27,732 nt of DNA, from IMG/VR virus record IMGVR_UViG_2778261570_000016, one strand, 5' to 3'. This DNA is from a virus (taxonomy: Duplodnaviria > Heunggongvirae > Uroviricota > Caudoviricetes). The notes under the pieces were generated by a model. That model was not told where the DNA came from. It saw only the letters and a list, made by a program, of their open reading frames with translations, and did no database searches. Made by a program: the position numbers and the translations under genes. Numbering within the stretch: the stretch's first letter is position 1; each line of letters starts with the position of its first letter. Shown piece by piece: positions 1 to 21,106 of this stretch.

Positions 1-332
1 GGCTGTTTACCGGAACGGATTTCGGGATTGTGTTTGGTGCGTTCGCCGGGGCGTTGTTTGTGGCAACGATGCCGCAGGCGCTTTCAGCCTGGCGTGTTGC
101 GGCGCATTTTCTGGTGTCGTTTATCGTCGGCGTACTGGGGGCGCGCGTGCTGTCAGCCTGGATTGCTGTAAAAACAGGGCATGACGGCACCTCTGCTGAT
201 GCGCTGTGTGCTGTGGTGGTGTCTGTATTGTCGGTAAAAGTGCTGTCCTTTGTGCACAGGCAGGACGTTATATCACTGATGTCCTGTCTGCTCTCCCGCC
301 TGAAGAGTGGAGGAGGCGACAATGTTAAGTAA
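1..332 (+). CDS. Putative holin-like membrane protein (5' end uncertain; frame is open to the window edge, in-window GTG at 30)
   Basis: About 100 aa with two to three hydrophobic helices (GIVFGAFAGALFVATM, FLVSFIVGVLGARVLSAWIAV, ALCAVVVSVLSV) and a charged C-terminus, sitting just upstream of the endolysin. Confidence 0.45.
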   Translation, partial: LFTGTDFGIVFGAFAGALFVATMPQALSAWRVAAHFLVSFIVGVLGARVLSAWIAVKTGHDGTSADALCAVVVSVLSVKVLSFVHRQDVISLMSCLLSRLKSGGGDNVK

Positions 333-597
333 CCTTTCCGGATTGCTGAATGTGGCGTTATGCACGGTTATCGTGCTGACGCTCTTTTTTTATCGCCGCC
401 GTGATTCCAGACATAAACCGCTGATGTCATGGCTGGCCTGGCTGCTGATGCTGCTGTATGCCTTTGCGCCCCTCAGCTATCTGTGTGGTCGCCCGTTAGC
501 AACGGGCTGGCTGGAAGTGTTTTTTAACCTGCTGTTTTGCGTGCTGGTGGTACGCGCACGCGGGAACGTCGCAAGAATCTTTCCATTGTTGAGGTGA
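322..597 (+). CDS. Small membrane protein, holin/antiholin-like
   Basis: ATG at 322 preceded by GGAGGAG; 91 aa with hydrophobic helices and basic patches; stop lies 2 nt before the endolysin ATG. Confidence 0.45.
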   Translation: MLSNLSGLLNVALCTVIVLTLFFYRRRDSRHKPLMSWLAWLLMLLYAFAPLSYLCGRPLATGWLEVFFNLLFCVLVVRARGNVARIFPLLR

Positions 598-977: not shown

Positions 978-992
978 CTTGCAAAACATACA

Positions 993-1018
993 GGGCCGCC
1001 ATGAGCGGCTTTTTTATT
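993..1018 (+). terminator. Weak hairpin plus T-run after the endolysin (possible partial terminator)
   Basis: GCCGC-catga-GCGGC followed by TTTTTTATTG. Confidence 0.3.
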
Positions 1019-1047: not shown

Positions 1048-1329
1048 ATGTACGCACTCAAGAAAATCACGGTAACTGAAGATGGTCGTCAGGTTGAAGA
1101 AGTGCATGTTCTGGGGAATATGTATCGCCTGGAATTTTACCCGCGCAACACTCACCTTGCTGCCCAAGTGGAGTATTGCCGGGATGGAAATGTGCCATGC
1201 ATTTTGGTGGAAAAAACGGATGAAGCCTACATCACCACGCTGGCGGGTGACACGGTGCGTTGTATCTGTCGCGGTGACAGTAAAGCCAGGGGTGAAATAG
1301 CCAGATGCCGCACCCAGGGCAGTAAATAA
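1048..1329 (+). CDS. Hypothetical Cys-rich small protein (93 aa)
   Basis: ATG with GGAGG 8 nt upstream; five Cys (CRDGNVPC, CICRG, C near C-terminus), no transmembrane segment; followed by a strong terminator. Confidence 0.5.
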   Translation: MYALKKITVTEDGRQVEEVHVLGNMYRLEFYPRNTHLAAQVEYCRDGNVPCILVEKTDEAYITTLAGDTVRCICRGDSKARGEIARCRTQGSK

Positions 1330-1335
1330 AAAAAC

Positions 1336-1375
1336 AAAACCCCGGCTGCTGGAACAGTCCGGGGTTTTGAGTTTT
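1336..1375 (+). terminator. Rho-independent terminator
   Basis: CCCCGG-ctgctggaacagt-CCGGGG stem-loop followed by TTTTGAGTTTT; A-run upstream, so possibly bidirectional. Confidence 0.7.
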
Positions 1376-1460
1376 CACGTCAGAGAGGAAATTGTGAGTA
1401 GTGAGTACGGAGAAAATCCTCGTGGGAAAGTATAAAAGATTCTTTTTGAGGTTGTCCATT

Positions 1461-1574
1461 ATGAAAGGTATTGAAGTGGAAACTCCCGCGAGCCTTGATT
1501 TGACAAGGGCTGCGGCCTTTGCAATTCGCCTTGTGGCGGTCGCTGTTCTGATTTGGGCTGTGCGTTGGTGGTGA
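1461..1574 (+). CDS. Small membrane peptide (37 aa, C-terminal hydrophobic helix)
   Basis: MKGIEVETPASLDLTRAAAFAIRLVAVAVLIWAVRWW; GAGG about 9 nt upstream; stop is 1 nt before the next ATG. Below the ORF-track length cutoff. Confidence 0.3.
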   Translation: MKGIEVETPASLDLTRAAAFAIRLVAVAVLIWAVRWW

Positions 1575-1575
1575 T

Positions 1576-1758
1576 ATGACGCGAAAACACTGGACACACA
1601 GAATGCCGCGAACGGCGGCGAAATGGGCACTGGTAGCGATACTGGTGCCTTTTTTTCTGGTGGGATGCGTCAGTCTGGATAAGGCGCGCCAGCTTTTCGA
1701 TACAGCTTCTCAGGTCTGTGAAATTGTCAACGGTGTTCGGCAGTGCCTGCAGAACTGA
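1576..1758 (+). CDS. Small lipoprotein (60 aa), possibly o-spanin-like or a lysogenic-conversion lipoprotein
   Basis: Signal peptide ending in lipobox L-V-G-C (AILVPFFLVGC); mature part about 30 aa with two Cys (QVCEIVNGVRQC). Confidence 0.45.
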   Translation: MTRKHWTHRMPRTAAKWALVAILVPFFLVGCVSLDKARQLFDTASQVCEIVNGVRQCLQN

Positions 1759-1931
1759 TCTCCTGTAAGAGCAGAATATTTTGCTGAAAAATGAAGGATG
1801 CGCCCGCGTCCGGAAAGCATGAAATTCTGCTGCGTGTGCCAATTTTATCTTATTCATTCTAAATCTTGCCGAATCAAGATGAACTTTGATCAACTGCCTG
1901 GCGGCAAGGGGCATTAAAACAGGAGAAAATT

Positions 1932-4072: not shown

Positions 4073-5164
4073 ATGAGCAGACCGGACTGGGGGGCGTTGC
4101 AGCAGGAGTATATTGCTGAATACACCCGCTCCGGTATATCTCCGGTGGCATGGTGTGAAGCAAGGGGACTGAATTACGCAACAGCCCGTCGTTACATCAA
4201 AAAACCTCCGAAAAATGCGCAGGCAGAATTGCGCAAAACTGCGCAAAAAAGTGCGCAGAAAAAACCTGCGCAGACTGCGCAAAAGCTGAACGGAAAATCT
4301 CAGGAAAAAAAGCCAGTATCCGATGCGTACCTGAATGAGGGCGATGCGGAAGAAATTTCGTTCTGTCCCGATGAATTCGGCATTTCAGACCAGCAGGCGA
4401 AATTCGCAATGCTGGTTGCCCAGGGTAAAAAGCCGACTGAGGCATACCGACTGGCTGGTTATGAAGGGCAAGGTGCGACAGCAAACAGCAACGCCAGCCG
4501 TATGCTTAGAAATGCCAGGGTTTATCGTGCCATCAGTTACTTTCGCAATCAGTACCAGAAACGCTATACCGCAGACCTGGATTTGCTGGTGAGTCAGTTG
4601 ATGGCCATCGTCCAGGCCGACCCCAATCAGTTGGCACAATTTCGCCGTGTTAACTGCCGTTATTGCTGGGGCGAGAATCACCTCTACCAGTGGCGTGATA
4701 TTGCAGAATTCGATAAGGCAGCGGCACAGGCCTCCAGAGATGGCAAACCCGAGCCGGAATATGGAGGCCTCGGCTTTGTTGATAACGCCATACCCAATCC
4801 GGACTGCCCGAAGTGCTGCGGTGAGGGAACGGGACAGCTTTATATGGCTGATACCACTCTGCTTGATGGGGATGCGCGGCAATTATATGCAGGGGCAAAA
4901 CTCGGAAAATTCGGCGTTGAGATCCTGCTGGAGGATAAGGCTGCCGCCCGGCGCGAACTTATCAAGCTGATAATGGCGACGAAAGGAAGTTCTGCTGGTG
5001 GTGCAACTGACAGTCGCAATGATCTGGAGCTTGAAGGACTGAGGCTTCGCAACGAAAAGCTGCGCACTGAGATTGAAAACCTCAAAAAAGGCGTGGGTGG
5101 TGAGAATAACGAAATAATTATCCACAACTCTCTGCCGATGCCGGGAGTGGATAATGTCGATTGA
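4073..5164 (+). CDS. Terminase small subunit
   Basis: N-terminal HTH-like region, then the segment ISDQQAKFAMLVAQGKKPTEAYRLAGYEGQGATANSNASRMLRNARV typical of small terminases, Cys cluster and C-terminal coiled coil; directly upstream of and overlapping the large terminase. Confidence 0.75.
   Translation: MSRPDWGALQQEYIAEYTRSGISPVAWCEARGLNYATARRYIKKPPKNAQAELRKTAQKSAQKKPAQTAQKLNGKSQEKKPVSDAYLNEGDAEEISFCPDEFGISDQQAKFAMLVAQGKKPTEAYRLAGYEGQGATANSNASRMLRNARVYRAISYFRNQYQKRYTADLDLLVSQLMAIVQADPNQLAQFRRVNCRYCWGENHLYQWRDIAEFDKAAAQASRDGKPEPEYGGLGFVDNAIPNPDCPKCCGEGTGQLYMADTTLLDGDARQLYAGAKLGKFGVEILLEDKAAARRELIKLIMATKGSSAGGATDSRNDLELEGLRLRNEKLRTEIENLKKGVGGENNEIIIHNSLPMPGVDNVD
4216..4281. repeat. Six copies of palindromic hexamer TGCGCA spaced 9-15 bp apart inside the small terminase gene
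   Basis: Read directly from sequence: TGCGCA at about 4216, 4230, 4240, 4252, 4267, 4276; encodes an AQK-rich linker. Confidence 0.5.
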
Positions 5165-6482
5165 AATCTACCTCCCAAAACCTCATGAGGGGCAAATAGC
5201 TGCATGGACGGCGGCAATAGAGGAACGCTTCCACGCGGTATGCTGTGGTCGTCGCTGGGGTAAAACGGTGATGCTGGTGAACATCGCTACCAGTTTCGCT
5301 ACGCGGAAATTTGCCATTCCTACCACCGGGCAACTTATCGCGGGTAGGGTGGGGATTTTTACCGCGCAATACCGCCAGTACCAGGAAATCTGGGATGAAA
5401 TTAGCGCCGTTCTGCAACCGCTGATCCTCAGTCAGTCAAAAAATGAAAAGCGCATCATTCTCCGTAATGGGGGGCGCATCGACTTTTGGGTAACGGACAA
5501 TAACAAACTGGCCGGGCGTGGGCGTAAATATCACGCTGTGCTGATTGATGAGGCCGCATTCACTAAATCGCAGGAAATGCTCGAGGAAATCTGGCCCCGC
5601 GCTATACGCCCGACGCTTGTTGATTACCGTGGCTGTGCGTGGGTATTTTCCACACCAAACGGTATCGACGAGAGTAATTTTTTCTACGCGATATGCCACG
5701 ATGAATCCCTGGGATTTGTCATGCACCATGCGCCAACTTCGTCGAATCCGTACATTCCGAAAGAAGAACTGGAGGAAACGGAGAAGAAATCCGATCCGCG
5801 CGTCTGGCAGCAGGAATATCTTGCCGAGTTCGTGGACTGGTCCAAAGATGCGTTACTCGATGTCGATAAGCTGCTGGTGGACGGTCAGCCGATTGAGATG
5901 CCGCCGCACTGCGACATGATTTTCGCAGTGATGGATACGGCGTTGAAAGGCGGAACCGAAAATGATGGTACTGGCGTGGTGTATTTCGCTTATGAGTCAA
6001 CGTATTCGGACGAGCCAAAACTGACGATTATTGACTGGGATGTGACGCAAATTAAAGCGTCATTGCTTCCTGAATATATCCCCGGCGTTTATGACAACCT
6101 CGAGCGCCTCGCGAAATTATGCCGTCCGCGTCTGGGCAGCCAGGGAATTTTTATGGAAGACGCCGCGATGGGGGCAATCCTCAACCAGAAGGCGGAAACC
6201 GAAGGCTGGGATATGACGCCGATTAAATCGGCACTAACCAGCAAGGGCAAAGACGAACGGGCGGTGATGGCATCCAGCTACCACTATCAGGGGATGTGCA
6301 AAATCGTCCGGGAGGCTTACGACAAGACCGTTTCATTCAAACGCACCACCGCAAACCACCTCATAAAACAAATCGCCGGGTTCCACCTGGCAGACAAAGA
6401 TGCGCATAAACGTGCTGATGACCTTTTCGATTGTTACACCTATGGATTGATCATCGCGCACGGTAATTACGCGGAATTGTAA
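5154..6482 (+). CDS. Terminase large subunit
   Basis: Walker A-like CCGRRWGKT and Walker B VLIDEAAF in the N-terminal ATPase half; acidic residues in the C-terminal nuclease half; 442 aa; start overlaps the small terminase stop. Confidence 0.9.
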   Translation: MSIEIYLPKPHEGQIAAWTAAIEERFHAVCCGRRWGKTVMLVNIATSFATRKFAIPTTGQLIAGRVGIFTAQYRQYQEIWDEISAVLQPLILSQSKNEKRIILRNGGRIDFWVTDNNKLAGRGRKYHAVLIDEAAFTKSQEMLEEIWPRAIRPTLVDYRGCAWVFSTPNGIDESNFFYAICHDESLGFVMHHAPTSSNPYIPKEELEETEKKSDPRVWQQEYLAEFVDWSKDALLDVDKLLVDGQPIEMPPHCDMIFAVMDTALKGGTENDGTGVVYFAYESTYSDEPKLTIIDWDVTQIKASLLPEYIPGVYDNLERLAKLCRPRLGSQGIFMEDAAMGAILNQKAETEGWDMTPIKSALTSKGKDERAVMASSYHYQGMCKIVREAYDKTVSFKRTTANHLIKQIAGFHLADKDAHKRADDLFDCYTYGLIIAHGNYAEL

Positions 6483-19386: not shown

Positions 19387-20393
19387 TGCGCTATTACCGA
19401 CTGGAAATCATCAATCCTAAAACAGGCAAGCCGCCAGTGGATTGCAACGGTAAACCTATCGGGCCTTTTGATACCAGTAAAACCCCCGGGTGTGGGCTAC
19501 ATGTTGAATTTGACGTGGAGGTAGCGGGTCTTGATGTAGTGAATTCAGGAACGATGCTCACAATATACGGTTTGCCTATCGACATGCTGAAGCAAAGCGT
19601 GAGTTTGCAGGGGTGTCTGGTCCGTATGAAAGCGGGCTTTGTTGAGGGATTGCCTTTGGCAAATCCACAGCAACAGGGTGAGGTTATTTATGGCGAAATT
19701 TATCTGGCCTATGCCAACTGGATCGGCACGAACCAGACCTTAAACCTGGTAATAAATCCAACCGTACGCAAAACAGATGATGGTAAACCGTTCTCTATCG
19801 AGGGGGATGGGCTTAAAGGGGAAAAGGTTGGTGATGTAATCTCCCGTGCGTTGCAAAAGGCATTTCCGAATAAATTGATCGATTGTACCGTCAGTGACAG
19901 TCTCGTTTTGCCAGAGCCGTGGACGGGCAAATATACGGAGATTGGTTCTCTGGCTATGGTCGTAAAAAACGCCTCTATTGCGATGATGCGTAATGAAAGG
20001 TATAGCGGAATCGCCATCAGTATTCTTTCCGACAGAATACGAATCTACGATAACGCATCGGCAAAGTGGGGTGAGCCAAAAACAATTCATGCCCATGAAC
20101 TGGTCGGGCAGCCGACATGGATAGCGCCGTTTACCGTCAGCTTCAAATGCCCTATGAGGGGCGATATCAGATGTGGTGATGTGGTTAAACTGCCGGAGGG
20201 GCTATATTCAGGCGCTGCGTCGATTGTGATGGCTAATACAACGGCACCCAGCGTTATCGCAAAAAATTCGACCACGTTTACCGGGAAATTTCTTGTGAAA
20301 TCAGTCAGACACATTGGTTCGTATCTGACAGCCGATGGCGATGCCTGGGTGACGGTATTTGAGGCATATGCTGAGAACTGGGCGAGGGTGTAA
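19386..20393 (+). CDS. Putative baseplate hub protein
   Basis: 335 aa immediately upstream of the spike-like gene; order resembles Mu/P2-type baseplate modules. Confidence 0.4.
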   Translation: MRYYRLEIINPKTGKPPVDCNGKPIGPFDTSKTPGCGLHVEFDVEVAGLDVVNSGTMLTIYGLPIDMLKQSVSLQGCLVRMKAGFVEGLPLANPQQQGEVIYGEIYLAYANWIGTNQTLNLVINPTVRKTDDGKPFSIEGDGLKGEKVGDVISRALQKAFPNKLIDCTVSDSLVLPEPWTGKYTEIGSLAMVVKNASIAMMRNERYSGIAISILSDRIRIYDNASAKWGEPKTIHAHELVGQPTWIAPFTVSFKCPMRGDIRCGDVVKLPEGLYSGAASIVMANTTAPSVIAKNSTTFTGKFLVKSVRHIGSYLTADGDAWVTVFEAYAENWARV

Positions 20394-21106
20394 TGTCAAA
20401 CGCTCAAAAATTACCGTTTCTCCGAACGCTGTCGGAGATGATGACCAGTTCTGGTAACCAGCAAGCCGAGCTTAAAGGGCGCGAATTGCCCTGCCATGTT
20501 GTCGATGTCAGTGGGCAGATAGTGACCGTTCAGTTTGATATGTTGCCAGAGGGGATCAACTTTCCGCAGATAACAATCCCTGTCGCCACATTCCCGTATA
20601 TTCGTTACCCGATACAGCCGGGCGATCGAGGAGTAACAATTGCCGCTGATGTATCCCTGCGCGGTGTGTCCGGATTGGGAACCGGTATGGCGACGCTCTC
20701 TTACTCGATGTCGCTCACTCCACTGTTTTTCGTGCCACTGGCAAACAAGGACTGGTCCGACGAAGATCCGCAAAAAATCGTTTTGTACGGTCCGGATGGC
20801 GCGATCCTCAAAACAGAGGACGGCAGTAGCTCGGTAACTGTGGCACCGGAAGAAATCAGGCTAAAGTCGAAAGCTGTTTACCTCGAGGCCGAAGATATCT
20901 TCATGAACGGGAAAATTCACCTCAACGGACCGATCGTCCAGGACAAAGCCCAGATGAAGGATACAACCGCTTCGCTGATTGGTCCTCTCAAGGTCGAGAA
21001 AGATGCAGTTATCAACGGCGTGAGCGCCAGCGGTCACAGTCACGATGTGACTGGGGTTCAAAGCGGCAACAGCACGATCACGTCGAAGCAACCAAATCCG
21101 GGTTAA
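20393..21106 (+). CDS. Putative baseplate central spike (gpV / Mu gp45-like)
   Basis: 237 aa; C-terminal HxH motif (SGHSHDV) of the kind that coordinates a metal ion at the apex of P2 gpV / Mu gp45-type spikes; followed by a strong terminator. Confidence 0.5.
   Translation: MSNAQKLPFLRTLSEMMTSSGNQQAELKGRELPCHVVDVSGQIVTVQFDMLPEGINFPQITIPVATFPYIRYPIQPGDRGVTIAADVSLRGVSGLGTGMATLSYSMSLTPLFFVPLANKDWSDEDPQKIVLYGPDGAILKTEDGSSSVTVAPEEIRLKSKAVYLEAEDIFMNGKIHLNGPIVQDKAQMKDTTASLIGPLKVEKDAVINGVSASGHSHDVTGVQSGNSTITSKQPNPG

Follow-up and report, generated by a model that had tools for sequence, protein, structure and literature searches.

How does a phage of a Gram-negative host breach the outer membrane when no spanin can be recognised in its genome? 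About one in seven or eight phages of such hosts are in this situation, and their way through the outer membrane is largely an open matter. The question is raised here by two small genes at the end of the lysis cassette in a stretch of viral DNA of 27,732 nucleotides (nt) (Caudoviricetes; IMG/VR record IMGVR_UViG_2778261570_000016), hereafter called the window. The first gene encodes a membrane peptide of 37 amino acids (aa) and the second one a prolipoprotein of 60 aa. The window is a P27-like prophage of Escherichia coli (Shiga toxin (Stx) 2e phage type): its region shares 92-95% identity with two Stx phages (phiP27 and phiSTEC1575-Stx2k) and 99.7% with one E. coli chromosome. The question of lysis without spanins sits here in prophages of E. 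coli, including the lineage of the Stx2e phage P27, where complementation based on lambda is routine.

The lipoprotein is already known, as it has been catalogued as an outer-membrane spanin subunit (o-spanin). What is new is that (i) it has no conserved inner-membrane spanin partner (i-spanin); and (ii) the peptide is an independent module, shared with cassettes that carry Rz/Rz1. In the initial annotation of the window, the position of both genes had been taken to suggest a spanin-like function: this holds for the lipoprotein, which is the constant last gene of the cassette and the catalogued o-spanin of phiP27, and fails for the two as a pair. There is about an even chance that the lipoprotein acts as a solo outer-membrane lysis factor in the spanin slot, with the 37-aa peptide as an accessory.

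Coding status of the two reading frames

Both open reading frames (ORFs) are real protein-coding genes under purifying selection. The peptide (MKGIEVETPASLDLTRAAAFAIRLVAVAVLIWAVRWW) runs from ATG 1461 to TGA 1572-1574, and the prolipoprotein (MTRKHWTHRMPRTAAKWALVAILVPFFLVGCVSLDKARQLFDTASQVCEIVNGVRQCLQN), 60 aa long, from ATG 1576 to TGA 1756-1758. A single base (T1575) separates them, and a GGTGG motif resembling a Shine-Dalgarno sequence precedes the lipoprotein gene, within the 3' end of the 37-aa ORF. The ratio of nonsynonymous to synonymous polymorphism (pN/pS) is 0.12 for the peptide (13 distinct nucleotide versions) and 0.25 for the lipoprotein (69 distinct nucleotide versions), with a value of 0.19 in the mature part of the latter. 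Both ORFs recur in hundreds of prophages of E. coli and other enterobacteria, and both match PHROG families of unassigned function: phrog_4493 (7e-16) for the peptide and phrog_7528 (2.7e-37) for the lipoprotein. The two ORFs had been described beforehand with their lengths, their 1-nt gap, the LVGC lipobox and two mature cysteines besides the lipid-modified one, and this description is correct for both.

As regards the start codons, the first methionine of the lipoprotein (Met1) is universal across relatives. Some annotations place the start at Met10, a choice that was rejected because relatives carry Val, Thr or Ile there. Most database calls of the peptide correspond to the 37-aa form; a 57-aa form starting at GTG 1401 was discarded as the main product, since the extension is conserved only among near-identical DNA.

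Position of the lipoprotein gene across lysis cassettes

A total of 80 IMG/VR loci were retrieved by similarity to the lipoprotein and sorted by arrangement. In all 80, the lipoprotein gene lies downstream of holin genes and an endolysin gene. The following arrangements can be differentiated: (i) an M15 endolysin followed directly by the lipoprotein, with a gap of about 14-17 nt, an AGGTGG Shine-Dalgarno sequence before the ATG and no ORF between them (32 loci); (ii) a GH108 endolysin, two other small membrane peptides and the lipoprotein (about 18 loci); (iii) an M15 endolysin, a 93-aa ORF, the 37-aa peptide and the lipoprotein, which is the layout of the window (about 12 loci); (iv) a GH108 endolysin, the 37-aa peptide and the lipoprotein (nine loci); (v) an M15 endolysin, the 37-aa peptide and the lipoprotein (five loci); and (vi) the layout of phiP27, in which a 90-aa ORF on the minus strand lies between the endolysin and the lipoprotein (three loci). 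The endolysin swaps between the M15 and GH108 types while the lipoprotein stays.

Distant homologues show the same order. The Mu-like phage L195 has two holins, a GH108 endolysin and the lipoprotein, and the stop codon of the endolysin gene overlaps the start codon of the lipoprotein gene (ATGA); L193 (lambdoid-type) has a Q antiterminator, a lambda-S-type holin, an M15 endolysin and the lipoprotein; and L197 has a holin, an M15-like endolysin and an abutting lipoprotein. Furthermore, the cassette is joined to different packaging modules (lambda-like Nu1/A, P27-type HNH/Terminase_4 and ParB-linked ones). The invariant association is that of holin, endolysin and lipoprotein, and the last of these occupies the slot where spanin genes normally sit. 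A search for the pair downstream of M15 endolysins had been suggested as a check: among the 80 loci, the lipoprotein keeps its place after the endolysin, and both genes occur together only in part of the cassettes.

Phage GER2 (L006 3796-3976) and the related loci L170, L188 and L189 have an intact Rz/Rz1 and, further downstream, a lipoprotein pseudogene with three in-frame stops and a frameshift. The decay of the lipoprotein next to Rz/Rz1 fits functional redundancy.

Search for an inner-membrane spanin partner

In the spanin census of Kongari et al. (2018), PhiP27 is listed as having a "separated" two-component spanin, with the o-spanin at 20706-20861 and the i-spanin at 20348-20542; the combined periplasmic length of this pair, 62 residues, is the shortest in the spanin database (PMC6139136). 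The o-spanin entry is exactly the lipoprotein studied here, counted from Met10. The i-spanin entry, a TTG-initiated ORF of 64 aa, was rejected: it is antisense to a better ORF of 90 aa (20332-20604, minus strand, with a GGAG ribosome-binding site) and it is not conserved, as it is found only in the three phiP27-type loci among the 80 and in L027, a diverged copy, an in-frame stop interrupts it. The shortest "two-component spanin" of the published census appears, then, to be devoid of a real i-spanin, and the database entry is corrected in this sense. On the other hand, the RefSeq annotation of phiP27 misses the lipoprotein, and the annotated L32 (20630-20785) corresponds to another frame.

Scans for a further candidate were negative. 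Apart from the lipoprotein, neither the window (27.7 kb) nor the complete genome of phiP27 (42.6 kb) has, in six frames, a credible small ORF with a lipobox, and neither has an ORF in which a polar domain of at least 45 residues comes after an N-terminal membrane anchor. With two lambdoid Rz proteins as tblastn queries, no match was obtained within 3-4 kb in about 160 P27-type loci. The Rz family is present in 277 of the 279 Stx phages surveyed elsewhere (PMC8136144), and the two-member Stx2e cluster C of that survey likely represents the two exceptions. Likewise, 31 genomes with a lipoprotein and no linked i-spanin have been reported, the mechanism being left open (PMC6139136). An orphan o-spanin-like gene is the most fitting description of the lipoprotein.

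The 37-aa peptide was already regarded in the initial annotation as no canonical i-spanin, and rightly so: its sole hydrophobic segment is C-terminal (it ends in RWW just before the stop codon) and at most 15 of its residues might be periplasmic. The 29 residues of the lipoprotein together with that 15-residue tail amount to 44 residues, too short to span the periplasm: they would reach about 15 nm in an extended form and about 6-7 nm as helices. The periplasm is roughly 20 nm wide or more.

Several observations would nonetheless suit a pairing of the lipoprotein with a small inner-membrane peptide, apart from the classification of phiP27 in the census. A small membrane peptide is encoded directly upstream of the lipoprotein in more than half of the cassettes; the gap of 1 nt and the Shine-Dalgarno motif within the upstream ORF point in the same direction; and the 37-aa peptide has a layout like that of the Pf3 coat protein (acidic N-terminal tail, helix and basic C-terminal end). 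Moreover, a type I protein (N-out, C-in) with a C-terminal transmembrane domain has been speculated to act as an i-spanin (PMC6139136). Against such a pairing, no membrane ORF separates endolysin and lipoprotein, or follows the lipoprotein, in the 32 cassettes of the first arrangement and in the distant homologues, and the upstream peptides, where present, come from unrelated families (that of the 37-aa peptide, here small37; smallB plus smallC; and the P27 ORF). In addition, small37 also precedes complete Rz/Rz1 genes, where a second i-spanin would be superfluous.

Features of the lipoprotein

The signal peptide of the lipoprotein consists of a basic n-region of 17 residues, an h-region and the lipobox LVGC, with Cys31 (TGC 1666-1668) as the lipid-modified residue; the long basic n-region is a trait of the family. 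A signal for twin-arginine translocation was considered and rejected, as there is no twin arginine. In the family, position +2 may hold V, A, T, S, G or E; since no member has Asp there, sorting of the lipoprotein to the outer membrane is expected.

The mature part (CVSLDKARQLFDTASQVCEIVNGVRQCLQN) has 30 residues, 29 of them after Cys31, and holds Cys48 and Cys57; these two residues and the lipobox cysteine are all invariant in the family. It has no prolines and is predicted to be helical. AlphaFold yields a single long helix for the lipoprotein, with low confidence (predicted local distance difference test of 67). The helix is amphipathic: its hydrophobic moment peaks at 0.50-0.62 in four family members, a value matched by 0.4-11% of shuffles, and it displays a continuous a/d seam in a heptad pattern (A37-L40-A44-V47-V51-V54-L58) flanked by both cysteines. 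The net charge of the mature part is 0, and ranges from 0 to +3 across the family. These predicted features resemble a miniature lipid-anchored coiled coil.

Scans of both small proteins against Pfam, NCBIfam and PADLOC gave no match at E values up to 1. The lipoprotein family is tiny: a profile search of 1.84 billion representatives recovered 24 clusters at 50% identity, all of them from the same small family, and no bridge from these clusters to Rz1, colicin lysis proteins or entericidins. A literature search under the protein accession retrieved nothing.

A terminator-like hairpin within the lipoprotein gene

The codons of the signal peptide contain a terminator-like hairpin (Table 1) with a folding energy of -21.3 kcal/mol (z -3.96). 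Synonymous diversity is 0.026 at the hairpin versus 0.19-0.30 in the rest of the lipoprotein gene, i.e. about 8-10 times lower. The hairpin and its T-run are kept in the GER2 pseudogene, and the hairpin is kept as well in the homologues of Lelliottia and L197 (about 60% identity) by means of wobble-compatible changes; the two most distant lipoprotein homologues lack it. Judging from these data, the hairpin is plausibly an intrinsic terminator that would be passed only by antiterminated transcription or under closely coupled translation. Because phiP27 encodes a Q-like antiterminator, late transcripts should pass the terminators located around and inside these genes.

The 37-aa peptide as a separate module

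Relatives of the peptide were found by DNA search; tblastn against phages returned nothing, probably due to low-complexity filtering. In lambdoid prophages, the peptide gene follows the R lysozyme gene and a terminator, and lies 1 nt upstream of Rz with its embedded Rz1. The junction TGAtATG is common to the peptide/lipoprotein and peptide/Rz arrangements. The copies linked to Rz are up to 89% identical to the peptide of the window (70-78% for L003 and L007, whose copies are shortened) and occur, for instance, in E. coli 99-3165, phage GER2, PhiR5_1 and O111/O157-type genomes; the allele linked to Rz is indexed in more than 2500 data blocks. A small membrane peptide gene before Rz is, then, very common in Stx prophages, and uncharacterised.

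The first 15 residues of the peptide have a pN/pS of 0.05, and hence the peptide itself matters and not just the fact of its being translated. With an acidic tail, a helix and a basic end, the peptide could adopt a tail-anchored topology or an N-out topology like that of the Pf3 coat. As it is optional before the lipoprotein and present before complete spanins, it is not the obligate partner of the lipoprotein. The 37-aa peptide is facultative, horizontally mobile and independent of the lipoprotein, and the proposal that both form a functional pair is not supported in view of the 32 cassettes without the peptide and of its presence before Rz/Rz1.

The same site can also hold arrays of two to four different peptides of 28-49 aa, before Rz or the lipoprotein (L003 2062-2562 and L033 3662-3996). 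Each of them has a C-terminal hydrophobic helix, and their stop and start codons often overlap or abut.

Proposed role of the lipoprotein

In a P27-type lysis cassette, the lipoprotein gene comes fourth and last, after two holin genes and the endolysin gene. According to the interpretation preferred here, the amphipathic heptad helix of the lipoprotein, 29 residues long, would probably form disulfide-linked oligomers via Cys48 and Cys57. Once the endolysin has removed the cell wall, the lipoprotein would carry out, or assist in, the last step of lysis, by weakening or rupturing the outer membrane, and it would do so with no inner-membrane spanin partner encoded by the phage. Its action might be nearer to that of an outer-membrane destabiliser of the colicin-lysis-protein or disruptin kind than to that of a fusogen that spans the periplasm. 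As for the peptide, a module formed by terminator, leader and small membrane peptide would have been inserted directly before the gene for the outer-membrane step, whether this is the lipoprotein or Rz/Rz1. The peptide would be translationally coupled to that gene, and two candidate roles can be proposed for it: (i) modulator of the last step of lysis; or (ii) membrane peptide expressed by the prophage.

Different known systems offer points of comparison. The o-spanins (lambda Rz1 and the "PhiP27 SOS" entry) are, like this protein, small outer-membrane lipoproteins that end a lysis cassette and have conserved periplasmic cysteines; here, in contrast, there is no conserved i-spanin partner, the gene is neither embedded in another spanin gene nor overlapping with it, and the basic n-region is conserved and long (17 residues). 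The initial annotation had already remarked the dissimilarity to Rz1, which is borne out: Rz1 is an unstructured chain of 40 residues that include 10 Pro, whereas the mature part of the lipoprotein has 29-30 residues, is proline-free and is predicted to be helical; besides, no match to Rz1 of Pfam (PF06085) was obtained at E up to 1.

The colicin lysis proteins, or bacteriocin release proteins, are also very small lipoproteins encoded by the last gene of a damage-induced operon, with a signal peptide about as long as the mature part. Mature colicin lysis proteins have about 30 residues, near the size of the lipoprotein. They cause quasi-lysis, and need no partner in the inner membrane to render the outer one permeable (PMC9517006); their quasi-lysis goes through the outer-membrane phospholipase A. 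The lipoprotein differs from them in that it gives no match to Lysis_col (Pfam, E up to 1), belongs to a phage cassette and not to a colicin operon, and has two extra cysteines.

The disruptin of phage phiKT (gp28) is a short amphipathic helical peptide that replaces spanins in a spanin-less coliphage. Unlike gp28, a cationic peptide devoid of both signal sequence and lipid modification, the protein described here has a net charge of about 0 and is a lipoprotein that would be exported before lysis. The lysis cassette of T1 likewise ends with the gene of a single lipoprotein, the unimolecular spanin gp11; nevertheless, gp11 has a C-terminal transmembrane domain and a periplasmic domain, rich in beta structure, whose length suffices to reach the inner membrane, and the lipoprotein studied here has neither. 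Identity as a unimolecular spanin was rejected for the lack of a hydrophobic C-terminal segment. Concerning the peptide, Lcc6 of the Shewanella phage LambdaSo is also a tiny single-helix membrane protein that is linked to lysis genes of a phage and is neither a holin, an endolysin nor a spanin, but Lcc6 is required and acts at the holin step, whereas the 37-aa peptide is facultative and tied to the gene for the outer-membrane step.

A number of points weigh against the lipoprotein being a solo lysis factor. Its timing, localisation, oligomerisation and lytic function, that is, every functional step, we infer from position and sequence features. We know of no precedent for a mature domain of 29 residues as a stand-alone outer-membrane disruptor, and the net charge of about 0 sets this domain apart from the cationic disruptin. 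There is no sequence similarity between the lipoprotein and colicin lysis proteins, Rz1, entericidins or Bor, and a profile search of the PDB gave no meaningful match. The hairpin within the ORF could mean that the full-length lipoprotein is made only under special conditions. The pseudogene next to Rz/Rz1 comes from one lineage and amounts to one evolutionary event. The Rz scan relied on two lambdoid queries, and the ab initio scans covered the window and phiP27. Finally, spanins are dispensable in some conditions, so these phages might skip the outer-membrane step altogether, the lipoprotein then performing some other late job.

It is possible, although we would not count on it, that the lipoprotein family represents a third kind of disruptor, distinct from both the spanins that bridge the periplasm and the cationic disruptin: a lipid-anchored, disulfide-linked mini coiled coil that would act alone at the inner leaflet of the outer membrane. 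Its expression would maybe be gated by the intragenic terminator, passed only by antiterminated late transcription or under tight coupling to translation, while the variable small inner-membrane peptides encoded before it, and before Rz/Rz1 in Stx phages, would constitute a class of modulators of the last step that had not been recognised so far. If a lipopeptide of 30 residues alone does complete lysis, it would be a minimal module for breaking the outer membrane. This would be relevant for (i) the biology of lysis; (ii) the release of Shiga toxin from Stx2e and Stx2k lysogens; and (iii) engineered lysis systems.

Alternative explanations

The lipoprotein could instead be a surface-modifying protein of the Cor/Llp, Bor or other moron type, expressed late or in the lysogen, whose role would be to mask receptors, to exclude superinfecting phages or to keep the released progeny from adsorbing to debris. 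The Cor/Llp variant had been put forward in the initial annotation. Small disulfide-containing outer-membrane lipoproteins are typical of Llp/Cor-type proteins, and lambda bor lies directly downstream of Rz; furthermore, before the pair there are terminators and a conserved leader, which could carry a promoter, and the intragenic terminator could restrict expression. Still, this explanation is unlikely. The gene is linked to the endolysin and not to tail or receptor-binding genes; its occurrence with several packaging modules (at least three) and in Mu-like phages argues against receptor specificity; and the commonest arrangements leave no room for a promoter, be it the gap of about 14-17 nt, the abutting start or the ATGA overlap. 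In addition, no match to exclusion or defence proteins was found in Pfam, PHROG annotations or PADLOC, and Llp and Cor are twice as large as the mature part.

With regard to the peptide, it could be toxin-like and belong to a module akin to type I toxin-antitoxin systems, or be another moron, with a small RNA, divergent or antisense, as its regulator; in that case only position would tie it to the lipoprotein or to Rz. The size and hydrophobicity of the peptide fit type I toxins, the unit formed by terminator, leader and small ORF moves between lambdoid and P27-type cassettes, and the same site can hold two to four different small membrane peptides in a row. A sigma-70-like site (TGGACA-18-TATACT, 1458..1429) on the minus strand overlaps the leader of the peptide gene and faces the bidirectional terminator (here 1336-1368), with which it would give a structured RNA of about 95 nt (fold -33.2 kcal/mol, z -5.3). 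Rfam yields on that strand only weak, sub-threshold matches to antisense or leader RNAs (sar, rnk leader). Nevertheless, the number of promoter-like matches is at chance level (1 found versus 1.7 expected) and the peptide ORF itself would lie outside the predicted RNA. With its constant TGAtATG junction, this ORF always directly adjoins the gene for the outer-membrane step, and looks co-expressed with the lysis genes; the helix, moreover, is C-terminal and contains Arg, unlike in most type I toxins. A toxin-like role, which the initial annotation had also listed, has a low probability.

Least probable of all is a minimal but true two-component spanin, in which the lipoprotein as o-spanin and a small inner-membrane peptide (the 37-aa one, others or the 64-aa ORF of phiP27) would bridge the periplasm and fuse both membranes, given the cassettes without such a peptide, the unrelated families of the peptides, the status of the phiP27 ORF and the short reach set out above.

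Layout of the cassette and neighbouring features

The features of the lysis cassette are compiled in Table 1. The pair had been located after the endolysin and a terminator: the order is right, while the single terminator is not, since the 93-aa ORF and a second, bidirectional terminator intervene.

Table 1. Features of the lysis cassette and its surroundings, in window coordinates.
Feature	Position	Strand	Evidence or remarks
First holin-like gene (Phage_holin_8), 3' part, start before the window	1-332	+	Pfam PF16931, E 7e-14
Second holin-like gene (Phage_holin_3_7, three transmembrane segments)	322-597	+	Pfam PF05449, E 1.5e-22; 11-nt overlap with the first
M15 endolysin (Peptidase_M15_4), 125 aa	600-977	+	Pfam PF13539, E 1.5e-12
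Terminator-like hairpin and T-run 3' of the endolysin	992-1018	+	Consensus scan
93-aa ORF, moron-like, terminator on either side	1048-1329	+	phrog_33497, E 3e-51
Bidirectional terminator-like hairpin AAAACCCCGG...CCGGGGTTTT, A-run upstream, T-run downstream	1336-1375		Sequence; minus-strand fold
Conserved leader of the 37-aa peptide gene, GAGG 9 nt before ATG	1429-1460	+	Sequence
37-aa membrane peptide, acidic N-tail, C-terminal hydrophobic helix ending RWW	1461-1574	+	pN/pS 0.12; phrog_4493
60-aa prolipoprotein, last gene of the lysis cassette	1576-1758	+	Lipobox LVGC; phrog_7528; pN/pS 0.25
Terminator-like hairpin in signal-peptide codons 17-27 (11-bp stem, GCGA loop, seven T)	1625-1656	+	Consensus scan; fold
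Conserved element of about 60 nt: GCAGAATATTTTGCTGAAAAATGA, variable GC-rich hairpin, GAAAGCATGAAATTCTGC; downstream edge of the cassette	1770-1830	+	62 distinct versions

The Phage_holin_8 gene is found in nearly all the related cassettes. The counterparts of the M15 endolysin in phiP27 and phiSTEC1575-Stx2k are labelled as endolysin or M15 metallopeptidase. The 93-aa ORF is an optional insert carried by only part of the related cassettes, and shows a weak hint of PDDEXK_14. Lambdoid phage GER2 has the same arrangement of the bidirectional terminator 5' of the small peptide, and also keeps the leader of the peptide gene, upstream of the copy linked to Rz. In L193, an alpha/beta-hydrolase gene (esterase or lipase-like; 4450-5310) lies directly 3' of the cassette of holin, M15 endolysin and lipoprotein.

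The conserved element of about 60 nt is located 3' of the lipoprotein gene in P27-type loci and 3' of the endolysin gene R in lambdoid Stx prophages, with further copies in L003 (1856-1920) and L006 (2252-2320 and 3990-4050). It has no match in Rfam; a small ORF within it was considered and discarded, as the reading frames are not conserved between both contexts. The element might mark the boundary of a module or else act as an RNA element.

Two minor observations concern the surroundings of the cassette. The sequence PP818812.1, named Actinobacillus phage vB_Apl-pPE4, is 95.5% identical to the lysis region, which is unexpected for a host of the Pasteurellaceae. Furthermore, a conserved ORF of 35 aa (phrog_8025) at 1932-2039, between the cassette and a ParB-like gene, recurs in many related loci.

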